From Desulfobacterales bacterium (GTDB taxonomy: Bacteria > Desulfobacterota > Desulfobacteria > Desulfobacterales > SURF-7), in contig JANQFQ010000051.1 of NCBI GenBank assembly GCA_028277765.1, positions 115,849-179,848 on the forward strand: 64,000 bases of DNA. Direction: 5' to 3'. A program made the position numbers and the translations under genes. How positions within the stretch are numbered: the stretch's first letter is position 1; every line of letters begins with the position of its first letter. Of the stretch, positions 2,361 to 33,085 are shown piece by piece. Under the pieces are notes generated by a model. The model was not told the DNA's origin, did no database searches, and saw only the letters and a program-made list of their open reading frames with translations.

Positions 2361-4097
2361 TTATACCTTACTCTTTTTCTTCGGATCTGCGGAAATCTTC
2401 CCTTCCTGAGGAATATACCATGGTGAGGGGTACCACCAGTTTCCTGGCTCTACCATGCCGTCCTCTATCAAGATATGCATCAGGTTGTAAGGAATAGCCA
2501 TGAGGCACAGGCCACCGGGATGCCCGGACGTCTGGTGTGCGTGGTAAAGGTTGTCAATGGGACTCCTGTAACGTTCAAGCCCTTTACACGGCCGGTTTCC
2601 CCAAAGCTGGTCCTCGCAGTGACGGCTCCCTGCCCATGTACCGCCAATAAGCCCGGTATTACGCAGTTCGATCTCCCTTCCTGTGGCATACCAGTGGTGG
2701 ATAATATTCTCATCATTTAGCCCGTCAAACACATTTGAAAAGCACTGTTCAGCGTATTGTTTAAGTTCATCCCTATATTTGTCCGGTGCATCTTCCCCTT
2801 CCACGTGGTAATCCGGAGAGGTCAGGGCCATCTCAAAGGGAGTTGAAATATACCCTTTTGATGTTGGGTAATTGCTTTGAGAGTGTGTTGGATCAAATGT
2901 CTGGGCAGACATCTGAAACCACATTTTGTATTTTGGATCAAGGGTAGGTTTTCCTTTGAATCCATCCACATCTGCCACATCCGCGTAATACATCTCCCGG
3001 CTGTCACAGGGGTAAACCCCTCCAATCTGGTAGGTGCCAAGGTTATTCTTGTCCAGGTATTTTTTGTATAACGGCTTATAGGTAAGCGGTTTTTTGGTAT
3101 GAAAAGTCGAAACATAGAGTGTCTGGTTCTTCAGGCTGATATCTTTTACATCACGGATAAAGCCGGGATCAAGGTGCTTTGGCCCGACCATTTTCAAAAA
3201 TGCCTGGTGAACGTCGCATGCAGCAATAACCGCATTGTTCGCATGTATTGTCCTTCCTCCCATGGCAGCGGTTTCTCTTAACCGGACACCCACAGCACGT
3301 CCGTCATCAATCAGTATTTCATCAACCGGGCAGTTGGTCCGGACAACTGCACCATTATGAACAGCACACCGGTGTATGGCATGAAAATAAGCATGCAGAC
3401 CGCCCCTGGGCGCGCTTATTTTGCCTGTATTCGGAAGCGTGAGAAGCTGAACGCACGTAATCGCAGGTATCGCAACCCCTTCCCAGTGGGCAGCTGCCCC
3501 TGAAGCCCAGGCCGCGTAAGCCATGCATGTTTTAAACACCTCTGTTTCACAGTGCTCGTCCAGAACATCAAACATGGTCATTTCACGAAGTTCGTGCGTC
3601 CACAGATCTGGCTGGAACTGTTTGTACACCTGCATATAAGGGACATTATCGTCCGTAATCTCAACTTCAGGAGGATGCGGAGGGCACCAGAATGTAGCTC
3701 GCTGAAGCTCTCTTGTGAACATGGGCTGGCCAAGCATTCCCCCGAGCTTGCCCCATCCCATTGCATCCTGGTCGCTTATTCTTACGTAACCCTTTGTGGT
3801 CATCAGGCCCGTTCCAGCAGCGCCTGCAATATCAACAGGATTCCAGTTCATTCGAAAACCGTATTTCCAGAGTTCAAGCTGATCAAATCCTGGAGCAGAT
3901 GAAGCATACATGAGGATGGCATGGGGATAGATACGCACGCCCGGAATAGGCTCCTGTGTTTCACACGCGCCCCCGCATTCTGTCCTTTCTTCAAGCACGC
4001 AAACACTTACATCACTTTTGGCCAGATACGCGGCAGTTGCCATCCCGTTCGGACCGCCTCCGACAATGACAAAGTCATACCGTTCGTCCTTGCTCAT
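2361..4097 (-). CDS. FAD/NAD(P)-dependent oxidoreductase, phytoene-desaturase (CrtI)-like family
   Basis: N-terminal DFVIVGGGPNGMATAAYLAK Rossmann dinucleotide motif; 578 aa. Confidence 0.7.
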   Translation of the reverse strand: MSKDERYDFVIVGGGPNGMATAAYLAKSDVSVCVLEERTECGGACETQEPIPGVRIYPHAILMYASSAPGFDQLELWKYGFRMNWNPVDIAGAAGTGLMTTKGYVRISDQDAMGWGKLGGMLGQPMFTRELQRATFWCPPHPPEVEITDDNVPYMQVYKQFQPDLWTHELREMTMFDVLDEHCETEVFKTCMAYAAWASGAAAHWEGVAIPAITCVQLLTLPNTGKISAPRGGLHAYFHAIHRCAVHNGAVVRTNCPVDEILIDDGRAVGVRLRETAAMGGRTIHANNAVIAACDVHQAFLKMVGPKHLDPGFIRDVKDISLKNQTLYVSTFHTKKPLTYKPLYKKYLDKNNLGTYQIGGVYPCDSREMYYADVADVDGFKGKPTLDPKYKMWFQMSAQTFDPTHSQSNYPTSKGYISTPFEMALTSPDYHVEGEDAPDKYRDELKQYAEQCFSNVFDGLNDENIIHHWYATGREIELRNTGLIGGTWAGSRHCEDQLWGNRPCKGLERYRSPIDNLYHAHQTSGHPGGLCLMAIPYNLMHILIEDGMVEPGNWWYPSPWYIPQEGKISADPKKKSKV

Positions 4098-17407: not shown

Positions 17408-17490
17408 TGGTGGCCGGAGCGGGAGTTGAACCCGCACGCTTTCGCACAGAGGTCTGAGCTCTGCGTGTCTGCCTGTTCCACCATCCGGCC
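17408..17490 (-). tRNA. tRNA-Leu (anticodon CAG), class II long variable arm
   Basis: Hand fold: acceptor GGCCGGA/TCCGGCC, loop cuCAGac, long variable hairpin, T-arm GCGGG-TTCAACT-CCCGC, CCA encoded. Confidence 0.8.
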
Positions 17491-17503
17491 TTATCTTTAT
17501 CAT

Positions 17504-17592
17504 CTGGTGCGTCGGGATGGACTTGAACCATCAGAGCTACTATAGCACCGGATTTACAGTCCGACCCGCTACCAGTTACGGTTTACCGACGC
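17504..17592 (-). tRNA. tRNA-Tyr (GTA), long variable arm
   Basis: Anticodon loop cuGUAaa, variable hairpin, T-loop TTCAAGT, CCA encoded. Confidence 0.75.
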
Positions 17593-17743
17593 ACAATACT
17601 TAAAAATCCAAAGAACGAAATCCGAACAAATCAGAAATTCAAATGTTCAAATGATCAAAACCCTCATACAAATTAAAAAACTTATAATTAAAAAAATAGC
17701 TGCTCTAAAATATTAAACCATAAAGTTTTGAATTTAATATTTT

Positions 17744-17796
17744 GGTCATTCGTATTTGTTTCGGATTTCGTGCTTCGGATTTCGAATTTTTTCTAT
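17744..17796. repeat. 48-bp repeat copy C (reverse orientation) of the AAATCCGAAGCACGAAATTCGAAATCCGAAAC...ATGACC family
   Basis: Reverse complement matches 19749-19795 and 36327-36372. Forms an inverted pair with the 19749 copy around a 16-tRNA block. Confidence 0.6.
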
Positions 17797-17863
17797 CATA
17801 ATCTAGTCCCCTTTCTAAGATAACTAAAGTTGAATATCCTGAACCATTATGTAAGCTGACGAT

Positions 17864-17937
17864 GGTGGCCCCTGTGAGAATCGAACTCACTTCATGAGAA
17901 TGAAAGTCTCATATCTTAACCAGTAGACGAAGGGGCC
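17864..17937 (-). tRNA. tRNA-Glu (TTC)
   Basis: Acceptor GGCCCCT, conserved CCTTCGTCTA, loop cuUUCau, CCA encoded. Confidence 0.75.
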
Positions 17938-18046
17938 ATACCAGTATTACTTAATTTAATCTCATATGTGCCGAAGATACATAAGCTAATAAGGACTTAA
18001 AATTGTCAGCATACCACAACTTTAGGCACTTAAGGCACTGTTTTTA

Positions 18047-18124
18047 TGGTAGGGGAGCCGGGATTCGAACCCGGAAATTACACTGGGCTTAAACCAGCAG
18101 CATGTGCCGTTCTGCTACTCCCCC
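18047..18124 (-). tRNA. Atypical tRNA, Leu-type anticodon TAA but class-I-like (7-nt variable loop, G13.A22 mismatch)
   Basis: Canonical T-arm CCGGG-TTCGAAT-CCCGG and acceptor. Best anticodon fold gives loop uuUAAgc. No long variable arm. Confidence 0.5.
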
Positions 18125-18135
18125 ATGCTTTTACC

Positions 18136-18212
18136 TGGAGAGCCTGGTGGGACTCGAACCCACATAAAACGATGTTGCAAACCGTCCCCTAACCAATTCG
18201 GGTCACAGGCTC
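18136..18212 (-). tRNA. tRNA-Cys (GCA)
   Basis: Loop uuGCAac, acceptor GAGCCUG/CAGGCUC, CCA encoded. Confidence 0.7.
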
Positions 18213-18291
18213 TGGTGCGGGCACCCGGAGTCGAACCGGGAAAACACATCGGGTTTGAGCCGACGGCATATGCCTATTCTGCCATGCCCGC
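18213..18291 (-). tRNA. Atypical tRNA, anticodon CAA (Leu-type) with short variable loop and 3-bp D-stem
   Basis: Acceptor GCGGGCA/UGCCCGC, loop cuCAAac, T-arm CCCGG-TTCGACT-CCGGG. Resembles the 18047 copy. Confidence 0.5.
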
Positions 18292-18292
18292 A

Positions 18293-18371
18293 TGGTGCCG
18301 GTGGTGGGAGTCGAACCCACAGATTTCACGGGATCTTAACCCGCAGCATATTCCAGTTCTGCTACACCGGC
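18293..18371 (-). tRNA. Atypical tRNA paralogous to 18047..18124 (anticodon loop uuaagau; AAG or shifted)
   Basis: Acceptor GCCGGUG/CACCGGC, D-arm GCAG-aacuggaauau-GCUGC, T-arm GUGGG-TTCGACT-CCCAC. Anticodon assignment uncertain. Confidence 0.45.
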
Positions 18372-18380
18372 TCTTTTTTA

Positions 18381-18457
18381 TGGCGCCCTGTACGGGATTT
18401 GAACCCGTGATACCAGATCGACAATCTAGCGTGATCGCCTGACTTCACTAACAGGGC
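18381..18457 (-). tRNA. tRNA-Asp (GTC)
   Basis: Loop uuGUCga, acceptor GCCCUGU/ACAGGGC, CCA encoded. Confidence 0.75.
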
Positions 18458-18467
18458 ATATTTCTCA

Positions 18468-18543
18468 TGGCAGGGGCGGAAGGATTCGAACCTTCAATTT
18501 ACGGCGTCAAAGGCCGCTGTGTTGCCAGTTTCACCACACCCCT
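18468..18543 (-). tRNA. tRNA-Gln (TTG)
   Basis: Loop cuUUGac, T-arm GAAGG-TTCGAAT-CCTTC, CCA encoded. Confidence 0.7.
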
Positions 18544-18656
18544 TTTTAAAAGCAGTTATAAGTTACAAGTGCCTTAAGTTAATGTATCGCTTCGCTCTGT
18601 CATCTTTAAACATACAAATTGTTAGAATTCATTCACTTAAGGCACTGCCTTTTACC

Positions 18657-18731
18657 TGGAGCGAGTAACCGGAATCGAACCGGTGTTTCAAGCTTGGAAG
18701 GCTTGCACTCTACCTGTTGAGTTATACTCGC
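18657..18731 (-). tRNA. tRNA-Gly (TCC)
   Basis: Loop cuUCCaa, acceptor GCGAGUA/UACUCGC. Confidence 0.75.
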
Positions 18732-18732
18732 T

Positions 18733-18806
18733 TGGAGCGAATGGCGGGAATTGAACCCGCGTTTCAACCATGGCAAGGTTGTGTTCTCCCCCTGAACTAC
18801 ATTCGC
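18733..18806 (-). tRNA. tRNA-Gly (GCC)
   Basis: Loop uuGCCau, acceptor GCGAAUG/CAUUCGC. Confidence 0.75.
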
Positions 18807-18807
18807 A

Positions 18808-18884
18808 TGGTGGAACGGATTGGAATTGAACCAATGACGCTTAGGGCTTCAACCTAACGCTCTACCAGCTTGAGCTACCGTTCC
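18808..18884 (-). tRNA. tRNA-Phe (GAA)
   Basis: Loop uuGAAgc, canonical D-arm AGCUCAAGCUGGUAGAGC. Confidence 0.8.
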
Positions 18885-18920
18885 ACAATCTTATATTTTT
18901 ACCATTGGCATAAGTTTCGT

Positions 18921-18955
18921 TTGAATAGTAAACTACACTATTCAACTCAGCTTTA
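18921..18955. promoter_or_regulatory. Palindrome TTGAATAGT-N7-ACTATTCAA followed by CTCAGCTTTAT, copy 1 of 2 (abuts the tRNA-Val 3' end)
   Basis: 9-bp perfect inverted repeat. The same ~35-bp sequence recurs at 33384-33419 directly in front of the rtcR start codon. Confidence 0.5.
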
Positions 18956-19032
18956 TGGTAGGACGAGCGGGATTCGAACCCGCATCCTTCTGCTTGTAAG
19001 GCAGATGCTCATCGCAATTGAGCTATCGTCCT
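18956..19032 (-). tRNA. tRNA-Val (TAC)
   Basis: Loop cuUACaa, T-arm GCGGG-TTCGAAT-CCCGC, CCA encoded. Confidence 0.75.
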
Positions 19033-19075
19033 GTGTTTTACTTTTATCTCCTTCATCATTGTATTACTCTAAAAA

Positions 19076-19181
19076 ATGGCCTGCCATACGTAGCTCGTTG
19101 CTATTTTGCCCTTAGCCCTCCTTCGCTAAAGCTATGGAGGGCACCATCCTTCTTCATCGCTCTGCTCTGAGCGAAGGATGG
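19076..19181. repeat. tRNA-array structured repeat (TASR) copy a: three-hairpin ~105-bp element abutting the tRNA 3' CCA
   Basis: Consensus ATGGCCAGCCAT...GCCCTCC-gtcgctaaagctat-GGAGGGC...CCATCCTTC-n-GAAGGATGG. Six copies at 19076, 20751, 20961, 21420, 21581 and 21822. Confidence 0.65.
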
Positions 19182-19258
19182 TGGAGGCACCGGTAGGATT
19201 TGAACCCACAACCAACTGCTTACAAGGCAGCTGCTCTTGTCCGTTGAGCTATGGTGCC
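19182..19258 (-). tRNA. tRNA-Thr (TGT)
   Basis: Loop cuUGUaa; CCA encoded and followed by a second CCA belonging to the repeat. Confidence 0.7.
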
Positions 19259-19297
19259 TTTCTTCTTTTTTATCTTTTACCCATCCAATTTTTCTTT

Positions 19298-19369
19298 TGG
19301 CACACCGGTAAGGAATCGAACCCTAGCCTACTGGTTTGGAGCCAGCCTGGTCACCATGACCTCCGGTGC
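19298..19369 (-). tRNA. tRNA-Trp-like (CCA) with aberrant D-arm (3-nt D-loop)
   Basis: Loop cuCCAaa, acceptor GCACCGG/CCGGUGU with G.U pairs, T-arm UAGGG-TTCGATT-CCUUA. D-arm collapses to GGUCA-ugg-UGACC. Confidence 0.5.
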
Positions 19370-19475
19370 GCATTTCATTACTTCTTTCCTGATGTTGTGC
19401 CTATAAAATGGCAGCGCTGAAAGCGCACCACAACTTAAGGCACTTGTAACTTATAACTTAAGCCACTTTATTATC

Positions 19476-19550
19476 TGGTCGGAGAGGAGGGACTTGAACC
19501 CCCAACTACGTGGCCCCAAACCACGCCGTCTCCCAATTGACTCACTCTCC
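19476..19550 (-). tRNA. tRNA-Pro (TGG)
   Basis: Starts CGGAGAG, loop uuUGGgg, CCA encoded. Confidence 0.7.
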
Positions 19551-19589
19551 GATTTTTCTATGAACATAAAATATGCTCCTGTTTATACA

Positions 19590-19667
19590 TGGGGTGTCGG
19601 AGGGGATTCGAACCCCCAACTACCTGAGCCACAATCAGGCGCTCTCCCCGTTGAGTCTACCGACACC
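19590..19667 (-). tRNA. tRNA-His (GTG) with genomically encoded G-1
   Basis: Loop uuGUGgc; extra 5' G opposite discriminator C; CCA encoded. Confidence 0.8.
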
Positions 19668-19748
19668 ATAAAAATGACAATACGCTTTCTTTTTTAGTTT
19701 CTAAGAAGTCACTCCTTTGCGTTAAAATATCTTGCTACCATTCTTGTT

Positions 19749-19795
19749 TAAAATCCGAAGCACGAAATTCGAAATCCGAAACAATATCAAATGAC
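19749..19795. repeat. 48-bp repeat copy A (forward) AAATCCGAAGCACGAAATTCGAAATCCGAAACAATATCAAATGACC
   Basis: Near-identical to 36327-36372 and reverse-complementary to 17744-17796. Confidence 0.6.
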
Positions 19796-19962
19796 CGAAA
19801 TACAAATTTCCGAAACACAAAAACATTTTGTTTTATAAAATCCAATGTTTTGAAAGTTTTAAAATTCGATATTCGGATTTAAAATTATCGTCATTAACTG
19901 TTCCCATAAATTACCTGCTAAATACCTTTCCTTATAAACGAGACTTTTTACAGTTTTGGTTT

Positions 19963-20038
19963 TGGCTGTGAGGGTCGGATTCGAACCGACGATTTCCTGA
20001 TTAACAGTCAGGCTCCTTGCCAGCTAGGATACCTCACA
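19963..20038 (-). tRNA. tRNA-Asn (GTT)
   Basis: Loop cuGUUaa, D-arm UCCU-agcuggca-AGGA, CCA encoded. Confidence 0.7.
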
Positions 20039-20122
20039 GCATGTTATCCTTTACAGCATTGCCCCAGCCCGCTGCCGCGATGTGTTCATCGCGGCAGCTT
20101 GATACTTTGAGCAATATACGGC

Positions 20123-20629
20123 TTAATAGATGCCTGCTTTTACAAGCAGATCATAAACGCCGATACTGTCGAGATGCTTCTTAATGAACTCCATAACTGT
20201 CGGCTGATAAGGCACAAAGTTTCTCTTATTAAAAAACATCTTTGCTTCCCTTAGGGTCCTGTCACCTTTTTTGTTATTGCAATCCACGCAGGAAGTTACA
20301 GTGTTTTCAAAAGTATTCTTACCTCCTCGTGACTGCGGAAAAACATGATCAATGTTCAGATTTTTTTTGGTTCCGCAGTAAACACATTTGAATACATCCC
20401 GAACCATCACGTTTTTTTTGGACCATGCCACAGCCTTTCGATAAATCTGTCTGACCAGATAAATCAGACGGAGAATCAACGGCACAACAATCTCTTCTGT
20501 TGCGGTTCTTACAATCATTTCAGAATACTTCTCCACGGTCACCTTTCCCTTGGCAACCAGCTTTAAAGCCCGTCGCACGGAAATGCTGTTAATGTAAGAA
20601 TAGTCCTGGTTTAAAAGTATTACTCTCAT
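20123..20629 (-). CDS. HNH endonuclease embedded in the tRNA array
   Basis: CVYCGTKKNLNIDHVFPQSRGG...N..VTSCVDCNNKKG HNH/zinc-finger motif; 168 aa. Confidence 0.75.
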   Translation of the reverse strand: MRVILLNQDYSYINSISVRRALKLVAKGKVTVEKYSEMIVRTATEEIVVPLILRLIYLVRQIYRKAVAWSKKNVMVRDVFKCVYCGTKKNLNIDHVFPQSRGGKNTFENTVTSCVDCNNKKGDRTLREAKMFFNKRNFVPYQPTVMEFIKKHLDSIGVYDLLVKAGIY

Positions 20630-20642
20630 GATCCACCGCCTT

Positions 20643-20717
20643 TGGCGCGCCTGGCAGGAATCGAACCCGCATATCAGAGCTTAGAAGGCTCCTGCTATTC
20701 CGTTTAGCTACAGGCGC
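20643..20717 (-). tRNA. tRNA-Arg (TCT)
   Basis: Loop cuUCUaa, acceptor GCGCCUG/CAGGCGC, CCA encoded. Confidence 0.75.
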
Positions 20718-20750
20718 TTGCCCATTATAACCTGCTTCTCCTTTCATTCT

Positions 20751-20855
20751 TAATGGTTTGCCCTCCGTAGCTCGATGTCTTTGATCCTTTTGCCCTCCGC
20801 CGCTAAAGCTATGGAGGGCACCATCCTTCTTCATCGCTCTGCTCTGAGCGAAGGA
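20751..20855. repeat. TASR repeat copy b
   Basis: Near-identical to copy a (..gccctccgccgctaaagctatggagggcaccatccttcttcatcgctctgctctgagcgaaggatgg). Confidence 0.65.
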
Positions 20856-20931
20856 TGGTGGAGGCGACAGGAATCGAACCCGCACGATACTGGATGCAAA
20901 CCAGCTGCTCTCCCTATTGAGCTACGCCCCC
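20856..20931 (-). tRNA. tRNA-Ala (TGC)
   Basis: Loop uuUGCau, and G3.U70 Ala identity pair present in acceptor GGGGGCG/CGCCUCC. Confidence 0.75.
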
Positions 20932-20960
20932 ATTTTCATTTCACTTAATCCTATCAATTT

Positions 20961-21037
20961 TAATGGCCTGCCATCCGTAGCTCGTTGCTATTGAGCCCTT
21001 AGCCCTCCTTCTTCGTCGCTTTACTCCGAGCGAAGGA
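20961..21037. repeat. TASR repeat copy c (middle hairpin deleted)
   Basis: atggcctgccatccgtagctcgttgc...ccctccttcttcgtcgctttactccgagcgaaggatgg. Confidence 0.6.
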
Positions 21038-21115
21038 TGGTGAGTGTGGAGGGACTCGAACCCTCAACTTACAGATTAAAAGCCTGTTACGCTGATCCAG
21101 TTGCGTCACACACTC
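21038..21115 (-). tRNA. tRNA-Lys (TTT)
   Basis: Loop cuUUUaa, acceptor GAGUGUG/CACACUC, CCA encoded. Confidence 0.7.
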
Positions 21116-21148
21116 ACATGTTAAACATCCTTTCCTCTATTTGTTTTC

Positions 21149-21224
21149 TGGTAGCGGCGGCCGGATTTGAACCGGCGCTGCACTGGATATGAACCAGTTG
21201 CTCTGCCTATTGAGCTACGCCGCA
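21149..21224 (-). tRNA. tRNA-Met/Ile2 type (CAT) with U1.U72 terminal mismatch
   Basis: Loop uuCAUau, T-arm GCCGG-TTCAAAT-CCGGC. The 1-72 mismatch is initiator-like but the anticodon stem lacks the three G-C pairs. Confidence 0.6.
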
Positions 21225-21231
21225 ACAAAAT

Positions 21232-21306
21232 TGGTAGCGATACCTGGAATCGAACCAGGGTTGCTCGATTATCGGTCGAGTGTTCTGCCTGCTGAACTAT
21301 ATCGCC
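21232..21306 (-). tRNA. tRNA-Ile (GAT), unusual C33
   Basis: Loop ccGAUaa, acceptor GGCGAUA/UAUCGCU, CCA encoded. Confidence 0.65.
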
Positions 21307-21319
21307 CCGATTTATATTC

Positions 21320-21398
21320 TGGCACCCCCGGGAAGATTCGAACTCCCGCAAACCCGGCTTCGAAGGCCGGCGCTCTGGATCCGCTGAGCTACGGGGGC
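21320..21398 (-). tRNA. tRNA-Arg (TCG)
   Basis: Loop cuUCGaa, acceptor GCCCCCG/CGGGGGU, CCA encoded. Confidence 0.6.
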
Positions 21399-21419
21399 AT
21401 ATGTCATCAAAACTTTCTT

Positions 21420-21493
21420 TAATTTCTTTGCCCTCCGTTGCTAAAGCTATGGAGGGCACCATCCTTCTCTGTCGCGCTGCTCCGAGCGAAGGA
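21420..21493. repeat. TASR repeat copy d (5' part missing)
   Basis: ..gccctccgttgctaaagctatggagggcaccatccttctctgtcgcgctgctccgagcgaaggatgg. Confidence 0.6.
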
Positions 21494-21569
21494 TGGTGGA
21501 CCCGGAAGGCATCGAACCTCCATAATACCGGTTATGAGCCGGCTGCTCTGCCGATTAAGCTACGGGTCC
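21494..21569 (-). tRNA. tRNA-Met (CAT), elongator-type
   Basis: Loop cuCAUaa, acceptor GGACCCG/CGGGUCC fully paired, CCA encoded. Confidence 0.7.
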
Positions 21570-21580
21570 AATTGCTTCTC

Positions 21581-21690
21581 ACGCCATATGGCCAGCCATC
21601 CGTAGCTCGTTGCCATTGAGCCCTTAGCCCTCCGCCGTTAAAGCTATGGAGGGCACCATCCTTCTCCGTCGTATTGCTCCGAGCGAAGGA
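21581..21690. repeat. TASR repeat copy e
   Basis: atggccagccatccgtagctcgttgccattgagcccttagccctccgccgttaaagctatggagggcaccatccttctccgtcgtattgctccgagcgaaggatgg. Confidence 0.65.
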
Positions 21691-21773
21691 TGGTGAGAGG
21701 GGGATTCGAACCCCCAAGGCTGTTACGCCCCACAGTTTAGCAGTCTGCTGCCATACCGTTCGGCCATCTCACC
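21691..21773 (-). tRNA. tRNA-Ser (GCT), class II, CCA not encoded
   Basis: Acceptor GGUGAGA/UCUCACC, loop cuGCUaa, long variable arm, T-arm GGGGG-TTCGAAT-CCCCC. Confidence 0.65.
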
Positions 21774-21821
21774 ATGTTTTCAATTTCGGTCTATGTATTA
21801 CCGTTTGCATTACCTCCTTTT

Positions 21822-21926
21822 TTATGGCCAGCCATCCGTAGCTCGGTGCATTTGATCCTTTTGCCCTCCGTCGCTAAAGCTATGGACGGCGCCATCCTTC
21901 TTCGTCGACTTACTCCGAGCGAAGGA
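21822..21926. repeat. TASR repeat copy f
   Basis: ttatggccagccatccgtagctcggtgc...gccctccgtcgctaaagctatggacggcgccatccttcttcgtcgacttactccgagcgaaggatgg. Confidence 0.65.
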
Positions 21927-22019
21927 TGGCGGAGGGACAGAGACTCGAACTCTGACGCGCCTTTTCAGGCGTTACTGGTTTTCAAGACCAGGCCCCGCCC
22001 CGCTGGGGTCAACCCCTCC
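21927..22019 (-). tRNA. tRNA-Ser (TGA), class II, 93 nt with irregular D-arm
   Basis: Anticodon arm CUGGU-cuUGAaa-ACCAG and T-arm CAGAG-TTCGAGT-CUCUG closely match enterobacterial tRNA-Ser(UGA). Long variable hairpin. TGA anticodon, not TCA, so not tRNA-Sec. Confidence 0.65.
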
Positions 22020-22230
22020 GAATGTCTATCCCGAATTTCGGGCGCAATTCACCTGTGAAAGTTTTTAAACATTTTTGTAAAAACTTTCTGTTTCGAACAG
22101 TACTATTGGCGTCTGACCCTGAATAAAAGCCCGGATTTTTCTGTAGCATTCAAGCTGTTTAAAAATCCGGTGATCGGTCAATTAACGGGATTTTCCGTTA
22201 TTTAGCGCATTCTATTTTCCTGTTCATATA

Positions 22231-22310
22231 ATCTTCTTCAAAAAAAAACCCTTTCAGTATGCCTTGGGCAACCGAAAGGGTTTATAAAAAGCATACTGAT
22301 CGTAGTAATC
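22231..22310. ncRNA. Candidate structured RNA motif, copy 1 (pseudoknot-capable: CCCTTTC..AGTATGC..GAAAGGG..GCATACT plus CTGA..TCAG hairpin)
   Basis: Interleaved complementarity, conserved in a second copy at 22551-22640 with a compensatory T>C / A>G change in the second helix. No ORF. Confidence 0.4.
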
Positions 22311-22550
22311 AGGTCATATGTTCCTCCGTATCTATAATTGCACTGGAAAAATTTAAATTGGCACAGAGCAATGAGGACATACTCCTGCGTTTAGTATTAC
22401 TGCCCGGGTAATACCATAGGTCGCTCTTGGGTATATATTGTTTTAATTGCTGCATTTTTTCCTTTACCTTGTTTGTAATCGAAACTGTTTTTTCAATTAA
22501 ATCCCCATTGGGCAGGTTTGGAACCCGCCCCTACATTAATCTAAATATTT

Positions 22551-22640
22551 GTTCAACCAATTAAAAAGCCCCTTTCAGCATGCTGCCGAAAGGGGCTGTA
22601 AAATTCATGCTGAAATTTAGTATCAGTTCATGGGCCCCTC
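22551..22640. ncRNA. Candidate structured RNA motif, copy 2
   Basis: GCCCCTTTCAGCATGCTG..CCGAAAGGGGCTGTAAAATTCATGCTGAAATTTAGTATCAG aligns with copy 1 and keeps all three pairings. Confidence 0.4.
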
Positions 22641-22894
22641 CCGGCGTGATATTCTGACATATGCCAGATGAATACCGTTATAAAACGGATTCAAGAGGGT
22701 GGCTTCGGATAGGCTAAAATCCAAAAGCCTTTTAATTTGTTTTAAACATAGTAACCAAATCATTTTTAAATTCCTTAGTAATTTTTAACCTAATTATACA
22801 CTCTCTTTCGCGCGAAGTCAACAGCCGATTTTTATCATTCTTGATTTAAAATCTCCTGAGAAGCCTATAAAACCTGTATTTCTTTTACAAATAA

Positions 22895-23413
22895 TCATAA
22901 TGAAATTTTTAGGCCAAACTTTTCTTTTATTGTCAGCAACGCTTCTGCATTCCCTTTTGCATCATCTACAGGATAATGCGTATGTTTGGTTTTCCTTAGA
23001 TGTTTAAAATTCTTAAACATATCTTTTACAATACCTTTATATAAAGATCCTAAGTTCGTTGAACTAAATCCAAAGGGATTCTTTCCTGTAAAATGATGAA
23101 AATACCAGTTAATAAATTGCCAATCAAAACCATTGTTATCAGAGATAAACATTGGCTGGCTTTTAGAGTGCGTTTTAATCCAGCTAGCAAAATTCATCAT
23201 GACCTCTTTTGGTTCATCAAACGCCAGTACTTCCTCCCGGCTAAAGCCACTCACTGCCAGTGCTTCAGGAATCCAGTTTTCTGAAATCGGCCGCATTTGC
23301 CCGTAAAAAGTTTTTTCAAGGCCCGGTTTTACGATAACCGCCCCAAAGCTGATCATCGAATAATCGTCAGGTATGGGACCATCAGATTCTATATCTACCA
23401 TTATATAACTCAT
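22895..23413 (-). CDS. DEDDh-family 3'-5' exonuclease (DnaQ/RNase T-like), single domain
   Basis: Exo I MVDIESDG, Exo II FISDNNGFDW, Exo III HxxxxD as HTHYPVDDA; 172 aa. Confidence 0.75.
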   Translation of the reverse strand: MSYIMVDIESDGPIPDDYSMISFGAVIVKPGLEKTFYGQMRPISENWIPEALAVSGFSREEVLAFDEPKEVMMNFASWIKTHSKSQPMFISDNNGFDWQFINWYFHHFTGKNPFGFSSTNLGSLYKGIVKDMFKNFKHLRKTKHTHYPVDDAKGNAEALLTIKEKFGLKISL

Positions 23414-27227: not shown

Positions 27228-27340
27228 CGGGGAAGGCAGGAATCGAACCTGCGACCGCCGGGTCCAAGATTTCAGGAACCCCCTGTGCCATAAAGCGGAG
27301 AGTAAAAAATCCCGGTGCTCTACCGCTGAGCTACTTCCCC
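27228..27340 (-). ncRNA. tRNA-like RNA (Y-RNA / YrlA-like tRNA mimic): intact acceptor, D-arm and T-arm, anticodon loop replaced by a 48-nt insertion
   Basis: GGGGAAG-UA-GCUC-AGCGGUAGA-GCAC-C-CCGGG-[48 nt incl. GGCACAGGGGGUUCC]-CCCGG-CGGUC-GCAGG-UUCGAUU-CCUGC-CUUCCCC. No CCA encoded. Sits in the rtcB operon flanked by hairpin modules. Confidence 0.6.
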
Positions 27341-28477: not shown

Positions 28478-29683
28478 TCAACCTTTTACCACCCCTAACG
28501 GTCTCAGTTTAACAAGCGGCTTAATCAGATCCAGTTCTGCTTCAATGACCGCGTCAATATCTTTATACGCCTGTGGTGCTTCGCTGAGATCGACCATCCC
28601 TTTTGTTTTACCTCTTTTTACTTTGCTCCACCGGTCATACACGATCCCTTCCATGGCCTTGTCGCATTCTTCAGGCGTTAATGCCCGTGTTGCCTGCATC
28701 CTTCCCATGACACGGCCTGCGCCGTGAGAACAGGACATAAAGGATTCAATGTTTCCGAGCCCTTTCACAATATATGACGATGTCCCCATGGAACCTGGAA
28801 TAATCCCGGTTTCATCCTGTTTGGCTGATGTAGCGCCTTTTCTGTGGACCCAGACATTTTTGCCAAAATGATTTTCCAGAGCAGCATAATTATGGTGTAT
28901 ATTCACCTGGTTTCCAAATTCAGCATCCTTATAAACTGATGTAAAAGCGTCTATAAATCTGTCCATAATTCGCTGCCTGTTCTCTCTTGCATATGCAAGG
29001 GCGAAATTCATATCTTTGATATAATCCTGGCCCTCCTGTGTGTTTACCGGTAAAAACGCTAGGTCCTTGTTCGGGATATTCGAATGGAACTTCCGGTTTA
29101 ACTCAAGGGCACGGTCATTATAAAACCTTGCAATCATATTGCCCAGGTGTCTTGACCCGGAATGGATCATCAGCCACACATGGTTATCATCACCTGCCTG
29201 GATTTCAATAAAATGATTGCCGCCACCCAGGGTTCCCAGATTTCTGCAGGCAAGATCCCTTACATGGGCAGAAAACCATTTTCTGTCACTATATGAATCA
29301 ATATCGTCTTCAAACCCTTCCCATGTCTGTTCTTTTTTATGTGCCTTGCCTTCGCCGCATGGAACCGTTTTCTTAATCATGTTGACAACTTCCCTGAGCT
29401 GTTCTCTGGTGGTATTTTCAACTTCGATACTTGTCCTCACAGCCCCCATCCCACAGCCGATATCCACACCAACAGCATTTGGAATCACCGTATTTGTGCA
29501 GGCAATCACACCGCCAATCGGCATCCCATACCCCTGATGACAGTCCGGCATCAGCGCCACATGGCGAAACACAGCCGGGTGCTGTGCTAAATCCGCAGCC
29601 TGATCCATTGCCCCATCTTCAATATCTTTACACCATGATTTGACCGGTACTCTAAAATTATCTTCCTGTTTTATCCATTCCAT
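28478..29683 (-). CDS. rtcB: RNA-splicing ligase RtcB (3'-phosphate/5'-OH RNA ligase)
   Basis: GTLGGGNHFIEIQ, HSGSRHLG and other RtcB blocks; 401 aa. Confidence 0.9.
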   Translation of the reverse strand: MEWIKQEDNFRVPVKSWCKDIEDGAMDQAADLAQHPAVFRHVALMPDCHQGYGMPIGGVIACTNTVIPNAVGVDIGCGMGAVRTSIEVENTTREQLREVVNMIKKTVPCGEGKAHKKEQTWEGFEDDIDSYSDRKWFSAHVRDLACRNLGTLGGGNHFIEIQAGDDNHVWLMIHSGSRHLGNMIARFYNDRALELNRKFHSNIPNKDLAFLPVNTQEGQDYIKDMNFALAYARENRQRIMDRFIDAFTSVYKDAEFGNQVNIHHNYAALENHFGKNVWVHRKGATSAKQDETGIIPGSMGTSSYIVKGLGNIESFMSCSHGAGRVMGRMQATRALTPEECDKAMEGIVYDRWSKVKRGKTKGMVDLSEAPQAYKDIDAVIEAELDLIKPLVKLRPLGVVKG

Positions 29684-29698
29684 AATAACACCTCTTTT

Positions 29699-30127
29699 TC
29701 ACTGCCATTGTTTTAACGCGAAATATGGTCCTAATCCAATGCTCTGCTCATGGGTAAAGGCCATAGTCCATTCCATATCTTCAGGAAAAACATAATAATC
29801 ACCAAAAGCTGATAGATCATGAAGCGTTTTAGAACAGCATTTGTATCCCAGGTTATCGTCTTTCTCAGAGAGTACATAATATTCTTTTGATGATACATTC
29901 TTATATAATTCAATAGCTCTTGCCCCAAGCTTGTGAATGGCGAAGTCGAAACTGAATGTATGCCAGTTATAATCGCCATAAATCCACTTTCCTTTTTTTT
30001 CCTTGATGATCTTTGAAAATGTTTCTCGCCATTTTTGCTGTAATTTCCAAGTTTCTTTTTTTGTAAGCTGGAAATATTGTATTGAATGTTCTTCAAAAAA
30101 TGTTTCTAGCATTTTCTTTAATTTCAA
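29699..30127 (-). CDS. Hypothetical protein (142 aa) inserted between rtcA and rtcB
   Basis: ORF with upstream spacing consistent with the operon. No recognisable domain. Confidence 0.45.
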   Translation of the reverse strand: MKLKKMLETFFEEHSIQYFQLTKKETWKLQQKWRETFSKIIKEKKGKWIYGDYNWHTFSFDFAIHKLGARAIELYKNVSSKEYYVLSEKDDNLGYKCCSKTLHDLSAFGDYYVFPEDMEWTMAFTHEQSIGLGPYFALKQWQ

Positions 30128-30338
30128 ATAATTGAATTTTTCACCTCTTAATATCTACAACCTGTTTTATCCTGTCAATTTTGTCTTTTTGCCATATTAA
30201 AAAAGACAGAATTTCATAAAGCACTTTCTTTAAAACCCGATCACGACCACGACCACCGCTCCGCTGATCACGACCACGAATTATAATGGCAGAGCGAAGC
30301 GATACATCAACTTTAGGCACTTATAACTTTAGTGCACT

Positions 30339-31358
30339 TTAGGCACTTTTTATGTCAATCTCCCACTCATTCTGCCCATATTCTTGCATATCAATGTCAA
30401 CATCCAGAAACTCTTTAATAATATCAATATTCGTCCTTGTATGTTTTGTCGGTGAAAGCGTTCTGAATTTACCTCCACCGGCCATGGCCATTGGAATCAG
30501 TAACTGATCCGCAAGATATCTGCCCACTGGCACATCATATGCCAGATATTCCCGTACAGATTTTGCTGTCCGGTTTGCCACCTTTTCCGCTGAAACGCCT
30601 CTTTCACCAAATCCCGTGAAAACCTCTGTAATATATTCACTTTCAATCTCTATTGTCAGAATATTCCCCGGGCCCTGAGAGTTTTCAACTTCAACCGTTC
30701 TTAATTCTTCCCTGTTCCATTCCAGCTTTTCCTTGATCACTTTAATCTCCCTGTGCGCGATCTTCACCGGCAGGTTTGCCACAACCGCGCTGGCGATTTT
30801 CCTGACAGTTTTTCCGCGATCCAGAAGATCAATACTATTAAGCTTTGTAGGATTAATCGTCACCTTAAATCTGCCTCCGCCTGCTGGATAAAAGCCCGGC
30901 TTTTCAAGCACAGCATCAACCCTTGGCCCCATCCGCTTAATCACCGGCAGAAAAGCTTTTTCAAGAAAGTCAAAAGGCGGAGCATATGGATTATGCGTTC
31001 CCCCTTCCAGAACAATCTCTGAAGGACCATCTGCAACTATTAGCGCCGGTAAAATAGTTTGAAAAACCAGGGTGCAGCTTCCGGCAGAGCCGATGGCAAA
31101 ATGATAATTGCCCGGTTTGATGGTTTCAGGCTCAAATGTAAACGCCTGTGAACCGATCCGGTTTCCCTGGATAGCAGCCTTGCCGATCTCTGCCGCGGCA
31201 TTTACCGCAGTAAGATGCTGACGCATCAGTCCCGGCTTTTTTCGCCCAGCCCGGATATTGCTTATTGTAAACGGCTTTCCTGTTACCAACGAAAGCGCAA
31301 GGGACGTTCTTAGAATCTGACCGCCGCCTTCACCATATGAACCGTCAATTAAAATCAT
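30339..31358 (-). CDS. rtcA: RNA 3'-terminal phosphate cyclase RtcA
   Basis: MILIDGSYGEGGGQILRTSLALSLVTGKPF..RQHLTAV N-terminal signature; 339 aa. Confidence 0.9.
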   Translation of the reverse strand: MILIDGSYGEGGGQILRTSLALSLVTGKPFTISNIRAGRKKPGLMRQHLTAVNAAAEIGKAAIQGNRIGSQAFTFEPETIKPGNYHFAIGSAGSCTLVFQTILPALIVADGPSEIVLEGGTHNPYAPPFDFLEKAFLPVIKRMGPRVDAVLEKPGFYPAGGGRFKVTINPTKLNSIDLLDRGKTVRKIASAVVANLPVKIAHREIKVIKEKLEWNREELRTVEVENSQGPGNILTIEIESEYITEVFTGFGERGVSAEKVANRTAKSVREYLAYDVPVGRYLADQLLIPMAMAGGGKFRTLSPTKHTRTNIDIIKEFLDVDIDMQEYGQNEWEIDIKSA

Positions 31359-31447: not shown

Positions 31448-32554
31448 TTATAATAAATTAACAACCCTGTCAGCAAGTCCCTTTTCACCCAGCACAACAT
31501 TGAGCTTTGAATTTCCTGCAACTTTCTCAAGAACATCCAGCTCTCGCAGGCGCATAAGTGTTGGGTTGTTGTCCAGGAGTTTAGCTGTATTGGCCTGGCT
31601 ACGCATAGCAGCTGTCTCTTCTCTACGCGTAATCAGGTTGGCATCTGCTGCTTTCTGGGCCTCGATGACTTTATTCATGAGGTCCTTCATATCTCCTGGC
31701 AGAATCACGTCCCTGATACCAAGTGCCAGCACATCAATACCGAATTCAGCTACTCGCTCCTTTATCGTATCTTCCAGATCTTTTGCCACTCTCTCTTTGT
31801 CGCTCAGGAGTGTATCCAGATCAAATGTTCCAATAACAGCCCGTAACGCCAGCTGTGCTTCACGGTATACAGCGTTTTTGCTGTCATCCACAACAGACAC
31901 GGACTTAAGCGCGTCCACAACCTTGTAAGTAATCACGGCATTCATTCGCAGTGTCACCTTGTCAGAGGTCATGATCTCCTGGCCGGATACATCCATTACC
32001 GTCTCACGCATATCAACATGATAAAATTTTACTTTTCCCATATTTCTCCAGAACATGTACTGGCCTGGTCCGAAAGTATCTACATGTACACCGTCTTTAA
32101 AGTAAACACCTGCAAAACCCTGCTCAACATTAGAAATGTTCAGTGCATGTTCTACGCCACTGGATTTCGCGATGATGTTAAGGTCCTTGTGATTAAATCG
32201 CACATCTCTCGCATCCACAACTTCAACTTTTACATTGCGAAATTTTGTCCAAAGTGCGTATAAACCTGGATCCAGAACCATTTCAAACCGTCCGTCAATC
32301 CAGACCAGTCCCCGCTGGTGATCCTTAAGGTCAAGGACTTCCGCGTGACCTTTCAAAGCGCCTGACTTTACAATCATGTCAAGGTCTTCATGCATAAACC
32401 AGGCATCCCGCTGGGAAACAACGGCTACCTTGACATTGCATAAAGGATCGACGAACCAGTGACGCCCTTTTCCTAAAAGGCCTTTGAATTCACGATCCCG
32501 AAAGTATAATCCTTTTTCATAAGAACGAATTTTTTTAGTTTTGATTAAGAACAT
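31448..32554 (-). CDS. SPFH/band-7 (stomatin/flotillin-like) domain protein
   Basis: PHB-domain region plus C-terminal coiled-coil (..EAQKAADANLITRREETAAMRSQANTAKLL..); 368 aa. Confidence 0.75.
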   Translation of the reverse strand: MFLIKTKKIRSYEKGLYFRDREFKGLLGKGRHWFVDPLCNVKVAVVSQRDAWFMHEDLDMIVKSGALKGHAEVLDLKDHQRGLVWIDGRFEMVLDPGLYALWTKFRNVKVEVVDARDVRFNHKDLNIIAKSSGVEHALNISNVEQGFAGVYFKDGVHVDTFGPGQYMFWRNMGKVKFYHVDMRETVMDVSGQEIMTSDKVTLRMNAVITYKVVDALKSVSVVDDSKNAVYREAQLALRAVIGTFDLDTLLSDKERVAKDLEDTIKERVAEFGIDVLALGIRDVILPGDMKDLMNKVIEAQKAADANLITRREETAAMRSQANTAKLLDNNPTLMRLRELDVLEKVAGNSKLNVVLGEKGLADRVVNLL

Positions 32555-33011: not shown

Positions 33012-33085
33012 TGGAGCAGGAATCGAACCTGCAACGCCCGTGTTATAAGCACGGTGCTCTACCAATTGAGCTATCCTCTTCTGAT
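33012..33085 (-). ncRNA. tRNA-like leader RNA: canonical D-arm, anticodon arm (loop cuUAUaa) and T-arm, but the 3' acceptor strand is interrupted by a ~22-nt insertion
   Basis: AAGAGGA-UA-GCUC-AAUUGGUAGA-GCAC-CGUGC-uuauaac-ACGGG-CGUU-GCAGG-UUCGAUU-CCUGC-UCC[aagccaaagggaugaaaaccc]UCUU. Lies between the sigma54 promoter and the first operon ORF. Confidence 0.55.

Follow-up and report, generated by a model that had tools for sequence, protein, structure and literature searches.

Candidate ribosome-dependent attenuators in the leader of a long tRNA array from a Desulfobacterales bacterium

The stretch analyzed here (the window) comprises 64,000 nucleotides of contig JANQFQ010000051.1 from a Desulfobacterales bacterium (positions 115,849 to 179,848 of the forward strand). 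The region in question lies between an RNase T-like exonuclease gene and tRNA-Ser(UGA), the head of an array of 27 tRNA genes, and contains two homologous RNA elements, each ending in an intrinsic terminator. With a probability of about 0.55, the region is a leader whose cis-acting conditional terminators control the array; the best explanation is ribosome-dependent transcription attenuation applied to a putatively horizontally transferred tRNA array.

Layout, strand, and conservation of the leader

The minus strand carries every neighboring gene and all 27 tRNA genes, and on it the order is sigma-70 promoter, leader element 1, leader element 2, third segment, and tRNA array. The features of the region and of the array are as follows.

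22895-23413, minus: RNase T-like exonuclease gene, which bounds the region on one side
22821..22793, minus: sigma-70 type promoter TTGACT-17 nt-TATAAT, 11 of 12 consensus matches, predicted to drive leader element 1
22787..22562, minus: leader element 1 ("T2" type), about 226 nt, beginning at the predicted transcription start and ending with the U-run, noncoding
22561..22500, minus: spacer between the elements
22499..22238, minus: leader element 2 ("T1" type), about 260 nt, noncoding
22236..22020, minus: third conserved leader segment, from terminator 2 to tRNA-Ser(UGA), present in some loci only
22170..22131, minus: third-segment hairpin CCGGAUUUUU/AAAAAUCCGG, from a repeat scan
22088..22057, minus: third-segment hairpin GAAAGUUUUU/AAAAACUUUC, from a repeat scan
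21927-22019, minus: tRNA-Ser(UGA), which heads the array and bounds the region on the other side
17408..22019, minus: array of 27 tRNA genes (4.6 kb), the presumed regulated target
20123-20629, minus: HNH endonuclease gene, which interrupts the array

A sequence-only reading had described two repeat segments of about 75 nt, at 22231-22310 and 22551-22640, in which helix 1 (CCCTTTC/GAAAGGG) and helix 2 would interleave as a pseudoknot. Both segments are present as placed. The helix 1 pattern CCCTTTC-N5-25-GAAAGGG has exactly two matches in the 64 kb (22249-22280 and 22570-22594), with 0.00 expected from 100 shuffles. The repeat scan recovered both helices, with helix 1 in both copies and helix 2 at 22254-22265/22288-22299 and 22573-22582/22606-22615. 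The reported T>C change matched by A>G between the copies is present, and helix 2 is supported over 30 copies, with U-A, U-G, and C-G variation at one pair. The homology is thus real, but the conserved unit is longer than proposed, consisting of a shared 3′ module of ~85 to 92 nt inside an element of ~230 to 260 nt.

The segments had been read on the plus strand; the functional strand is the minus strand. U-runs follow both hairpins on the minus strand only. One terminator pair is G·U in 30 of 30 aligned copies and would be an A·C mismatch on the plus strand, and many other pairs are also G·U. In addition, with a covariance model (CM) derived from the alignment, the window copies reach 89 bits on the minus strand, compared with 18 to 21 bits at the same places on the plus strand. 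Together, these results indicate that the RNA is the reverse complement of the strand first considered.

The motif is conserved outside this genome. A CM search, covering the loci gathered by preceding motif-pattern scans (L numbers below), gave 43 matches representing 37 distinct sequences, in metagenome contigs and Desulfobacterales genomes; most of the distinct copies are in tandem, and most lie just upstream of tRNA arrays. The scan of metagenome contigs yielded 35 loci, about 24 of them true homologues. The scan of species-representative genomes identified Desulfonema magnum, the Olavius "Delta 1" symbiont, a metagenome-assembled genome (MAG) labelled Cytophagales, and three Desulfobacterales/Desulfobacteraceae MAGs, two of the three being true homologues. 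Pattern matches set aside as chance occurrences were those in rpoC coding sequence (L011, L013, L022, L023, L026, and L028) and those in L008, L015, L024, L036, L042, L050 to L052, L054, and L055. In the IMG/VR viral contigs, two motif patterns gave 0 and 3 matches, the 3 being unrelated terminators, and a BLAST search of the leader against plasmid and phage records returned nothing.

Twelve homologues each of element 1 and element 2 were aligned, the latter without indels across the core. Ten homologous loci have the promoter at the equivalent place, as TTGACT-N17-TATAAT or TATGAT. Divergent lineages (L039 and L034, and L053) also carry the tandem pair behind a consensus promoter, and consensus promoters equivalent to that of the window were found in L039, L053, and L049. 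A scan of the window and seven loci against Rfam 15 gave only tRNA matches at threshold, with no T-box, riboswitch, PyrG leader, GOLLD, ROOL, or tmRNA and no family for the motif itself. The best subthreshold match in the region, PyrG_leader (22 bits versus a cutoff of 65), was rejected as chance. The earlier proposal of a novel structured RNA is borne out: the motif is conserved, structured, and noncoding, and it is an RNA family not described in Rfam, to which it could be added from the alignments made here.

The shared 3′ module and its alternative helices

The module alignment comprises 30 copies of four subtypes (T1 to T4). From 5′ to 3′, the module consists of a Shine-Dalgarno (SD) sequence, a start-X-stop mini-open reading frame (mini-ORF; segment A), box B, a U-rich linker, and a strong intrinsic terminator containing box C. 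The CM matches in the window are at 22562-22645 (element 1, 89.3 bits) and 22241-22331 (element 2, 89.4 bits), with the following parts.

22642..22635, minus: element 1 SD sequence GGGAGGGG, read from the sequence
22631..22623, minus: element 1 mini-ORF AUG-AAC-UGA, read from the sequence
22606..22615, minus: element 1 box B UUUCAGCAUG, from the repeat scan, able to pair with segment A or box C
22582..22573, minus: element 1 box C CAUGCUGAAA, within the terminator hairpin
22597..22562, minus: element 1 intrinsic terminator AGCCCCUUUCGGCAGCAUGCUGAAAGGGGCU + U5, a 14-bp hairpin (22597..22567) and U-run (22566..22562), −22.7 kcal/mol
22415..22393, minus: element 2 hairpin P1, GGUAUUAC-loop-GUAAUACU, from RNAalifold
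22383..22369, minus: element 2 anti-SD box AGUAUGUCCUCAUUG, from RNAalifold
22327..22323, minus: element 2 SD sequence GGAGG, read from the sequence
22317..22309, minus: element 2 mini-ORF AUG-ACC-UGA, read from the sequence
22291..22299, minus: element 2 box B UCAGUAUGC, the 3′ strand of helix 2 as it had been read on the plus strand
22262..22254, minus: element 2 box C GCAUACUGA, within the terminator hairpin
22283..22240, minus: element 2 intrinsic terminator AAACCCUUUCGG...CUGAAAGGGUUU + U9, a 17-bp bulged hairpin (22283..22246) with U9 at 22248..22240, core −19.1 kcal/mol

Start-X-stop was found in 35 of the 37 distinct copies, 33 of which have a recognizable SD-like site 4 to 12 nt upstream. 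The SD sequence is purine rich (GGAGG, GGGAGGGG, or AAGGAG), the stop is UGA or UAA, and the sense codon is ACC in 12 copies, UUC in 8, AAG in 5, ACG in 4, and AAC, ACU, or AGG in 1 each; in L049, the mini-ORF has no sense codon (AUG-UGA). The start and the stop are among the best-conserved positions of this stretch of the module, and the codon between them drifts, which indicates that peptide identity is irrelevant. Box B, with the consensus U(C/U)AG(U/C)(A/G)UG, begins 9 nt after the stop in most copies (range, 7 to 11 nt), and box C, with the consensus CAU(A/G)CUGAAA, occupies the terminator loop and 3′ arm. The start, the stop, and the 9-nt spacing are kept over all four subtypes despite diverged flanks, and the mini-ORF is retained in subtypes with a different surrounding hairpin. 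The CTGA/TCAG hairpin, which had been placed after the pseudoknot, lies upstream in the RNA instead and carries this mini-ORF, which had been overlooked.

Both elements have a G+C-rich hairpin followed by a U-run on the transcribed strand, and a scan of the 64-kb window ranks both in the top three, by strength, of the terminator-like sites on the minus strand. Over the 30 copies, the terminator helix is 99.7% paired across 13 aligned pairs, with covariation at the basal pairs. Helix 1 is only the base of this 14- to 17-bp terminator stem.

Helix 2 corresponds to pairing of box B with box C (B:C), in which 94% of cells are paired over 10 pairs in the 30 copies, compared with 31 to 51% in partner-slid controls; one pair varies as CG14/UG11/UA5 and another as CG20/UG9/UA1. 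The terminator stem uses columns 84 to 90, which are 7 of the 10 3′-side columns of B:C, so B:C and the full terminator are largely mutually exclusive. Because of this overlap with a complete, conserved stem and its U-run, B:C is more simply taken as an antiterminator than as part of a static, interleaved pseudoknot. In a further alternative (A:B), the CAU(A/G)...CUGA of the mini-ORF pairs with box B, and the resulting hairpin holds the start and stop codons. This helix is 96% paired in T2 (element 1) copies versus 24 to 50% after sliding and is predicted in both window copies.

The elements also have pairings of their own. In element 1, the SD region can form a duplex with the 5′ arm of the terminator (−26.4 kcal/mol in the window and −17 to −26 kcal/mol in 11 of 12 T2 copies) that is as strong as the pairing of the terminator arms themselves, with 85% of cells paired versus 37 to 64% after sliding. 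In element 2, the SD sequence and AUG pair with the upstream anti-SD box AGUAUGUCCUC, and RNAalifold shows variation at pair 144-199 (UA8/UG2/CG2) and, in the P1 hairpin GGUAUUACC/GGUAAUACG, at pair 112-122 (AU7/GC3/GU2). The anti-SD box is also kept in the divergent second elements of L039, L034, and L053; the register of the anti-SD:SD helix differs between lineages. The anti-SD box, A, B, and C are all built on AGUAUG/CAUAY.

Minimum free energy (MFE) folds of RNA prefixes differ from those of the full-length RNAs. When element 2 ends at box C, the MFE structure is a 12-bp B:C helix (−19.3 kcal/mol), and when element 1 ends before the terminator 3′ arm, a 12-bp SD:5′-arm helix forms (−27.9 kcal/mol in total), whereas the full-length RNAs fold into the terminators. 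As folding predictions go, such a difference would be typical of kinetically controlled switches.

Proposed attenuation of the tRNA array and competing explanations

An intrinsic terminator lies in the leader between the promoter and the presumed regulated genes, in an order that is conserved, and the leader contains a very short ORF with a ribosome-binding site. In the mechanism proposed here, the promoter at 22821..22793, predicted to be strong and constitutive, would fire into two serial attenuators. By default, both terminators would form and the array would be nearly silent. A:B would act as an anti-antiterminator hairpin containing the mini-ORF, and B:C would act as the antiterminator, removing 7 nt of the terminator 3′ arm; element 1 would have the extra option of pairing its SD region with the terminator 5′ arm, and the SD sequence of element 2 would be held by the upstream anti-SD box. 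A ribosome on the mini-ORF, or one failing to load, would shift these helices such that the polymerase reads through into the tRNA genes, and RNase P would then cut the leader off. Under the B:C relay, a ribosome sitting or stalled on the mini-ORF would lead to read-through, and under the SD:5′-arm helix of element 1, read-through would occur when no ribosome loads. The toeprint of an initiating ribosome lies 16 nt downstream of the A of AUG (PMC9226507), and box B starts ~19 nt downstream of that A; a ribosome on the mini-ORF would therefore be expected to cover segment A fully and leave box B exposed. We infer that read-through is regulated, with the ribosome as the sensor and translational stress as the trigger; the role of the ribosome on the mini-ORF is proposed tentatively.

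The sequence-only reading had offered control of either the tRNA array or the end of the minus-strand operon. The former fits the anatomy, in which the promoter, the two elements, and the tRNAs share one strand, with a tRNA downstream on the same strand in ~20 loci. The latter does not, since the terminators sit within the leader rather than where an operon ends. Measured from the end of the module, the first tRNA lies at the following distances.

1 nt in L038; 12 nt in L040 and L053; 14 nt in L009; 20 nt in L034 and L039; 24 nt in L027 and L031
83 nt in L049; 90 nt in L032; 121 nt in L016; 133 nt in L047; 177 nt in L037
About 210 nt in L012 and L017; 221 nt in the window

A gap of 1 to 24 nt, as in eight of these loci, leaves no room for a promoter, and the array there can therefore be transcribed only through the terminators.

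Several points weigh against attenuation. Termination, read-through, and translation of the mini-ORF are all predictions from sequence. L047 and L009 are without a canonical mini-ORF, and T3 and T4 copies show no evident A:B hairpin. Even when the ribosome footprint is masked, the terminator folds more stably than the antiterminator (−23.1 versus −19.0 kcal/mol in element 2 and −24.9 versus −15.0 kcal/mol in element 1). B:C uses the 3′ arm of the terminator and not the 5′ arm, which is kinetically less favorable than in textbook attenuators. Changes on both sides of a pair occur in 2 of 10 B:C pairs and 3 of 13 SD:arm pairs, and shuffle controls were not decisive; the covariation is thin because the sequences, from close relatives, are very similar. 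The two elements imply opposite signs of response, although both amount to sensing of disturbed translation. Finally, the 221 nt of conserved sequence between terminator 2 and the first tRNA of the window may possibly hold an unrecognized promoter.

These points bear on the alternatives to different degrees. That the terminators win at equilibrium and that the covariation statistics are weak would suit ordinary, unregulated leaky terminators or insulators in a tRNA operon leader. In that case, B:C and A:B would be a by-product of hairpin duplication, and A does resemble C and B the terminator 5′ arm, as expected after an internal duplication. However, ~230 to 260 nt of upstream sequence is conserved with covarying helices, the mini-ORF and its 9-nt spacing persist over four subtypes, the tandem layout recurs in distant lineages, and B:C complementarity persists where A:B is lost, which makes simple leakiness distinctly unlikely. 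Terminated leader transcripts can act in trans in other systems, and each element could instead be an independent small RNA gene with its own terminator, merely colocalized with the tRNAs. A strong terminator ends each element, element 1 has its own consensus promoter, and box B is single stranded in several MFE folds and could serve as a seed. Yet in most loci only ~20 nt separates the upstream U-run from the conserved start of element 2, with no promoter-like site, and the eight loci with a tRNA 1 to 24 nt past the module would be left with a promoterless array. A conserved SD-start-stop is also unexpected in a base-pairing small RNA, and a trans-acting role is considered unlikely.

Coexistence of helices 1 and 2 as an H-type pseudoknot, whether as a riboswitch-like fold binding a ligand or protein or as a modulator of termination, would require the stem to be trimmed to CCCUUUC/GAAAGGG. 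The helices then do not overlap, and both are conserved. In the prefix folds, B:C is already present before the 3′ arm, which could subsequently close helix 1 around it, such that a pseudoknot is possible as an intermediate. The full, almost invariably paired terminator stem nevertheless takes most of the B:C columns, as described above. From geometry, the trimmed 7-bp stem would leave 0 nt between the 3′ strands of helices 2 and 1, and a 10-nt linker would have to reach across the two stacked helices. Neither conserved unpaired nucleotides forming a pocket nor an Rfam riboswitch match was found, and a static pseudoknot as the functional form is very unlikely.

The region had also been called free of ORFs, which is right functionally but wrong literally, since two minus-strand ORFs exist without a coding signature.

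22623-22763, minus: 46-aa ORF, AAGGA before the ATG, ending at the homologous TGA
22309-22455, minus: 48-aa ORF, AAGGA before the ATG, ending at the homologous TGA

If these were real small-protein genes with their own ribosome-binding sites and terminators, the repeats would simply be their shared 3′ ends. The AAGGA lies 5 to 9 nt before each ATG, and every T1 homologue has an open frame of at least 52 codons. In 12 T1 homologues, however, the codon-position entropy is flat (0.427/0.413/0.428) and the three frames do not differ in their ratio of synonymous to nonsynonymous changes. L018, L038, L021, and L035 lack the start codon, and L027 has TTG in its place. In the T2 homologues, a 1-nt indel shifts the 46-aa frame, which in L033 and L038 stays open for just 6 codons. 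What looks like a Tyr-to-Cys replacement falls at a hairpin pair with a compensatory A-U to G-C change. Neither ORF has a Pfam match or a counterpart gene on record. Codon selection, a conserved start, and a conserved frame, as expected of small-protein genes, were thus not found, and protein coding is hardly credible. Attenuation by conditional terminators is the reading retained below.

Related systems and genomic context

The closest parallel is the vmlR leader of Bacillus subtilis, in which a 3-codon upstream ORF, uORF(MIN), lies in an anti-antiterminator hairpin and a stalled ribosome lets the antiterminator form (PMC9226507). Both leaders are promoter proximal and have an SD-driven, very short ORF inside a hairpin and an alternative helix overlapping an intrinsic terminator, the hairpin and the helix of the present leader being predictions, and in both the sense codon varies and peptide identity is irrelevant. 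Unlike in vmlR, the ORF here is two codons or a bare start-stop, the units are in tandem, and the targets are tRNAs rather than a protein; the candidate antiterminator pairs with the terminator loop and 3′ arm, and a second candidate in element 1 uses the SD sequence itself. There is no sequence or Rfam relationship between the two. In classical leader-peptide attenuators of the trp, his, and pheA type, the position of the ribosome decides the fold, as it would here. Like them, the present leader has four segments (anti-SD box, A, B, and C) that are similar or complementary to one another and form a relay, and it has an upstream hairpin followed by a U-rich stretch, which could act as a pause site. 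It differs in having no run of regulatory codons, and sensing of one particular amino acid or tRNA is unlikely because there is a single variable sense codon or none.

Minigenes of phage lambda (bar) sequester peptidyl-tRNA in Pth-deficient cells, and they resemble the module in having an SD sequence, AUG, one sense codon, and a stop in a transcribed leader. The bar minigenes are not known to be linked to a terminator/antiterminator pair, and no sequence relationship is expected. A two-codon minigene of the same plan is present in the LEE1 leader of enterohemorrhagic Escherichia coli (PMC3262186). Like GOLLD and ROOL in Rfam, the present leader is a conserved noncoding RNA beside a tRNA cluster on DNA that is horizontally transferred, in the present case putatively. 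GOLLD and ROOL are structured RNAs of 580 to 800 nt beside tRNA genes on mobile elements; they are not known to contain a mini-ORF or terminator module, and neither was matched here.

Long tRNA arrays (L-arrays) are dense clusters of many tRNA genes, as many as 43, that are of foreign origin and have genes for RNA repair and translation close by (PMC8421152). The array of the window agrees with this description in its clustering and in its proximity to RtcA and RtcB genes, and it is putatively horizontally transferred. The neighboring context genes are as follows.

28478-29683, minus: RtcB RNA ligase gene
30339-31358, minus: RtcA RNA 3′-phosphate cyclase gene
31448-32554: SPFH protein gene

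In L017 and L016, SPFH-RtcA-RtcB lie directly upstream of the promoter and the two leaders, and in the window they lie a few kilobases upstream. The L-array of Anabaena sp. PCC 7120 is silent and is induced when translation is impaired, with rtcB coregulated and a typical neighbor (PMC8421152). Its control involves direct repeats in the promoter, overlapping the −10 box, that are bound by the ribbon-helix-helix repressor TrcR (PMC10272220). The present array resembles the Anabaena L-array, or trn operon, in having >20 tRNA genes near rtcB, which makes a response to translational stress physiologically plausible, but its promoter is an unobstructed consensus and its conserved features are RNA elements. 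The Anabaena array papers contain no mention of a leader, terminator, or attenuation (PMC8421152, PMC10272220), and a literature search found no attenuator or leader before tRNA arrays.

L-arrays spread horizontally and are usually silent, and Anabaena, with its protein repressor and response to translational stress, is the only worked-out case. If the interpretation proposed here is true, these would be the first known attenuators of tRNA genes, and the regulation of long arrays would have been solved a second time, independently of the cyanobacterial TrcR repressor. A self-contained RNA switch travelling with the array and sensing the state of translation by means of a two-codon ORF would explain its regulation in a new host without a dedicated regulator, and ribosome-dependent attenuation would be extended from antibiotic resistance and amino acid operons to tRNA genes. 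As a compact, testable sensor of ~90 nt whose ORF is minimal, the module would also lend itself to work on the control of RNA folding by initiating or terminating ribosomes.

Copies of the T3 subtype have the mini-ORF AUG-AAG-UAA, and no tRNAs follow the module in L010 (2429-5259), L025 (984-4082), and L046 (1-371). Downstream of it in L010 and L025 are a DIP1984/DUF6847-family gene and a gene for a 927-aa ClpA/ClpB-like double AAA+ ATPase, the C-terminal ~280 aa of which match the PCRF/RF2 N-terminal region. Such a fusion of an ATPase with a release factor-like domain is unusual and may be related to ribosome rescue. The ATPase gene is split into two ORFs in L010, and in L046 (Desulfonema magnum) the first gene after the module looks different (291 nt downstream examined). 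The location of the T3 module before another translation-related gene favors a general cis-regulatory module over a tRNA-processing signal, and it supports attenuation in being consistent with a general translation-stress leader. We tentatively suggest a leader family of the Desulfobacterota in which the mini-ORF gauges ribosome occupancy, with two units in series gating backup tRNAs and T3 gating the ATPase, as a possible RNA-controlled translational-stress regulon.

Other parts of the leader are less widely shared. The third segment is kept in six loci (L012, L017, L018, L021, L037, and L016) and is absent from loci where the tRNA abuts the terminator. Its two hairpins are A/U rich and of 10 to 11 bp. 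On its minus strand, from terminator 2 to tRNA-Ser, no promoter-like site was found, none of the sigma-54 or sigma-70 candidates being convincing; the segment may possibly be a processing site, a protein-binding site, or a hidden promoter. The interelement spacer (22500-22561, minus) is ~60 nt longer in the window than in all homologues and contains a G+C-rich hairpin, GGGCGGGUU-CCAA-ACCUGCCC, at about 22531..22510 (minus). A Logan contig identical to the window (L006, 7350-7684) stops at the last base of the element 1 hairpin, probably at an assembly graph break caused by the near-palindrome; short-read assemblies may therefore often truncate such leaders.

The window is treated as bacterial because its genes include those for a histidine kinase, a GDSL lipase, a sugar-nucleotidyl transferase, and a caspase-domain protein and because its relatives are Desulfobacterales genomes. 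A phage origin was rejected, as a match to a 462-kb "uncultured phage" covered just the widespread exonuclease gene. The exonuclease was likewise discarded as a synteny marker, since the protein is nearly ubiquitous (~8,000 matches) and its neighbors differ. The HEAT-repeat protein, tried as a marker, had no relatives in viral or JGI contigs, and an exact look-up of the exonuclease and both small ORFs found none on record.

The HNH endonuclease gene within the array has homologues with 83 to 88% protein identity at the equivalent array position in 11 homologous loci with different flanks, which suggests that it is a stable passenger or a mobility factor of the array. Between rtcA and rtcB, which overlap in L017, the window has a 655-nt gap (29684-30338) into which something has apparently been inserted. 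Several tRNA matches nearby or in related loci are atypical. An Rfam tRNA match at 27228-27340 (minus; 113 nt, 60 bits), not called by ARAGORN, lies between the gene for a RING-domain-like 620-aa protein and rtcB and may be intron containing or otherwise interrupted. A truncated match at 33013-33076 (minus; model positions 5 to 66, 52 bits), just past the SPFH gene, was also missed by ARAGORN. In L009, two Rfam tRNA matches (2389-2519 and 2592-2722) are 131 nt each, much longer than normal, and may carry introns or insertions. tRNA-Ser(UGA) appears truncated or degenerate in L018 (about 3560-3700) and L021 (about 1900-1955); the head of the array is evolutionarily unstable, and the leaders are retained.

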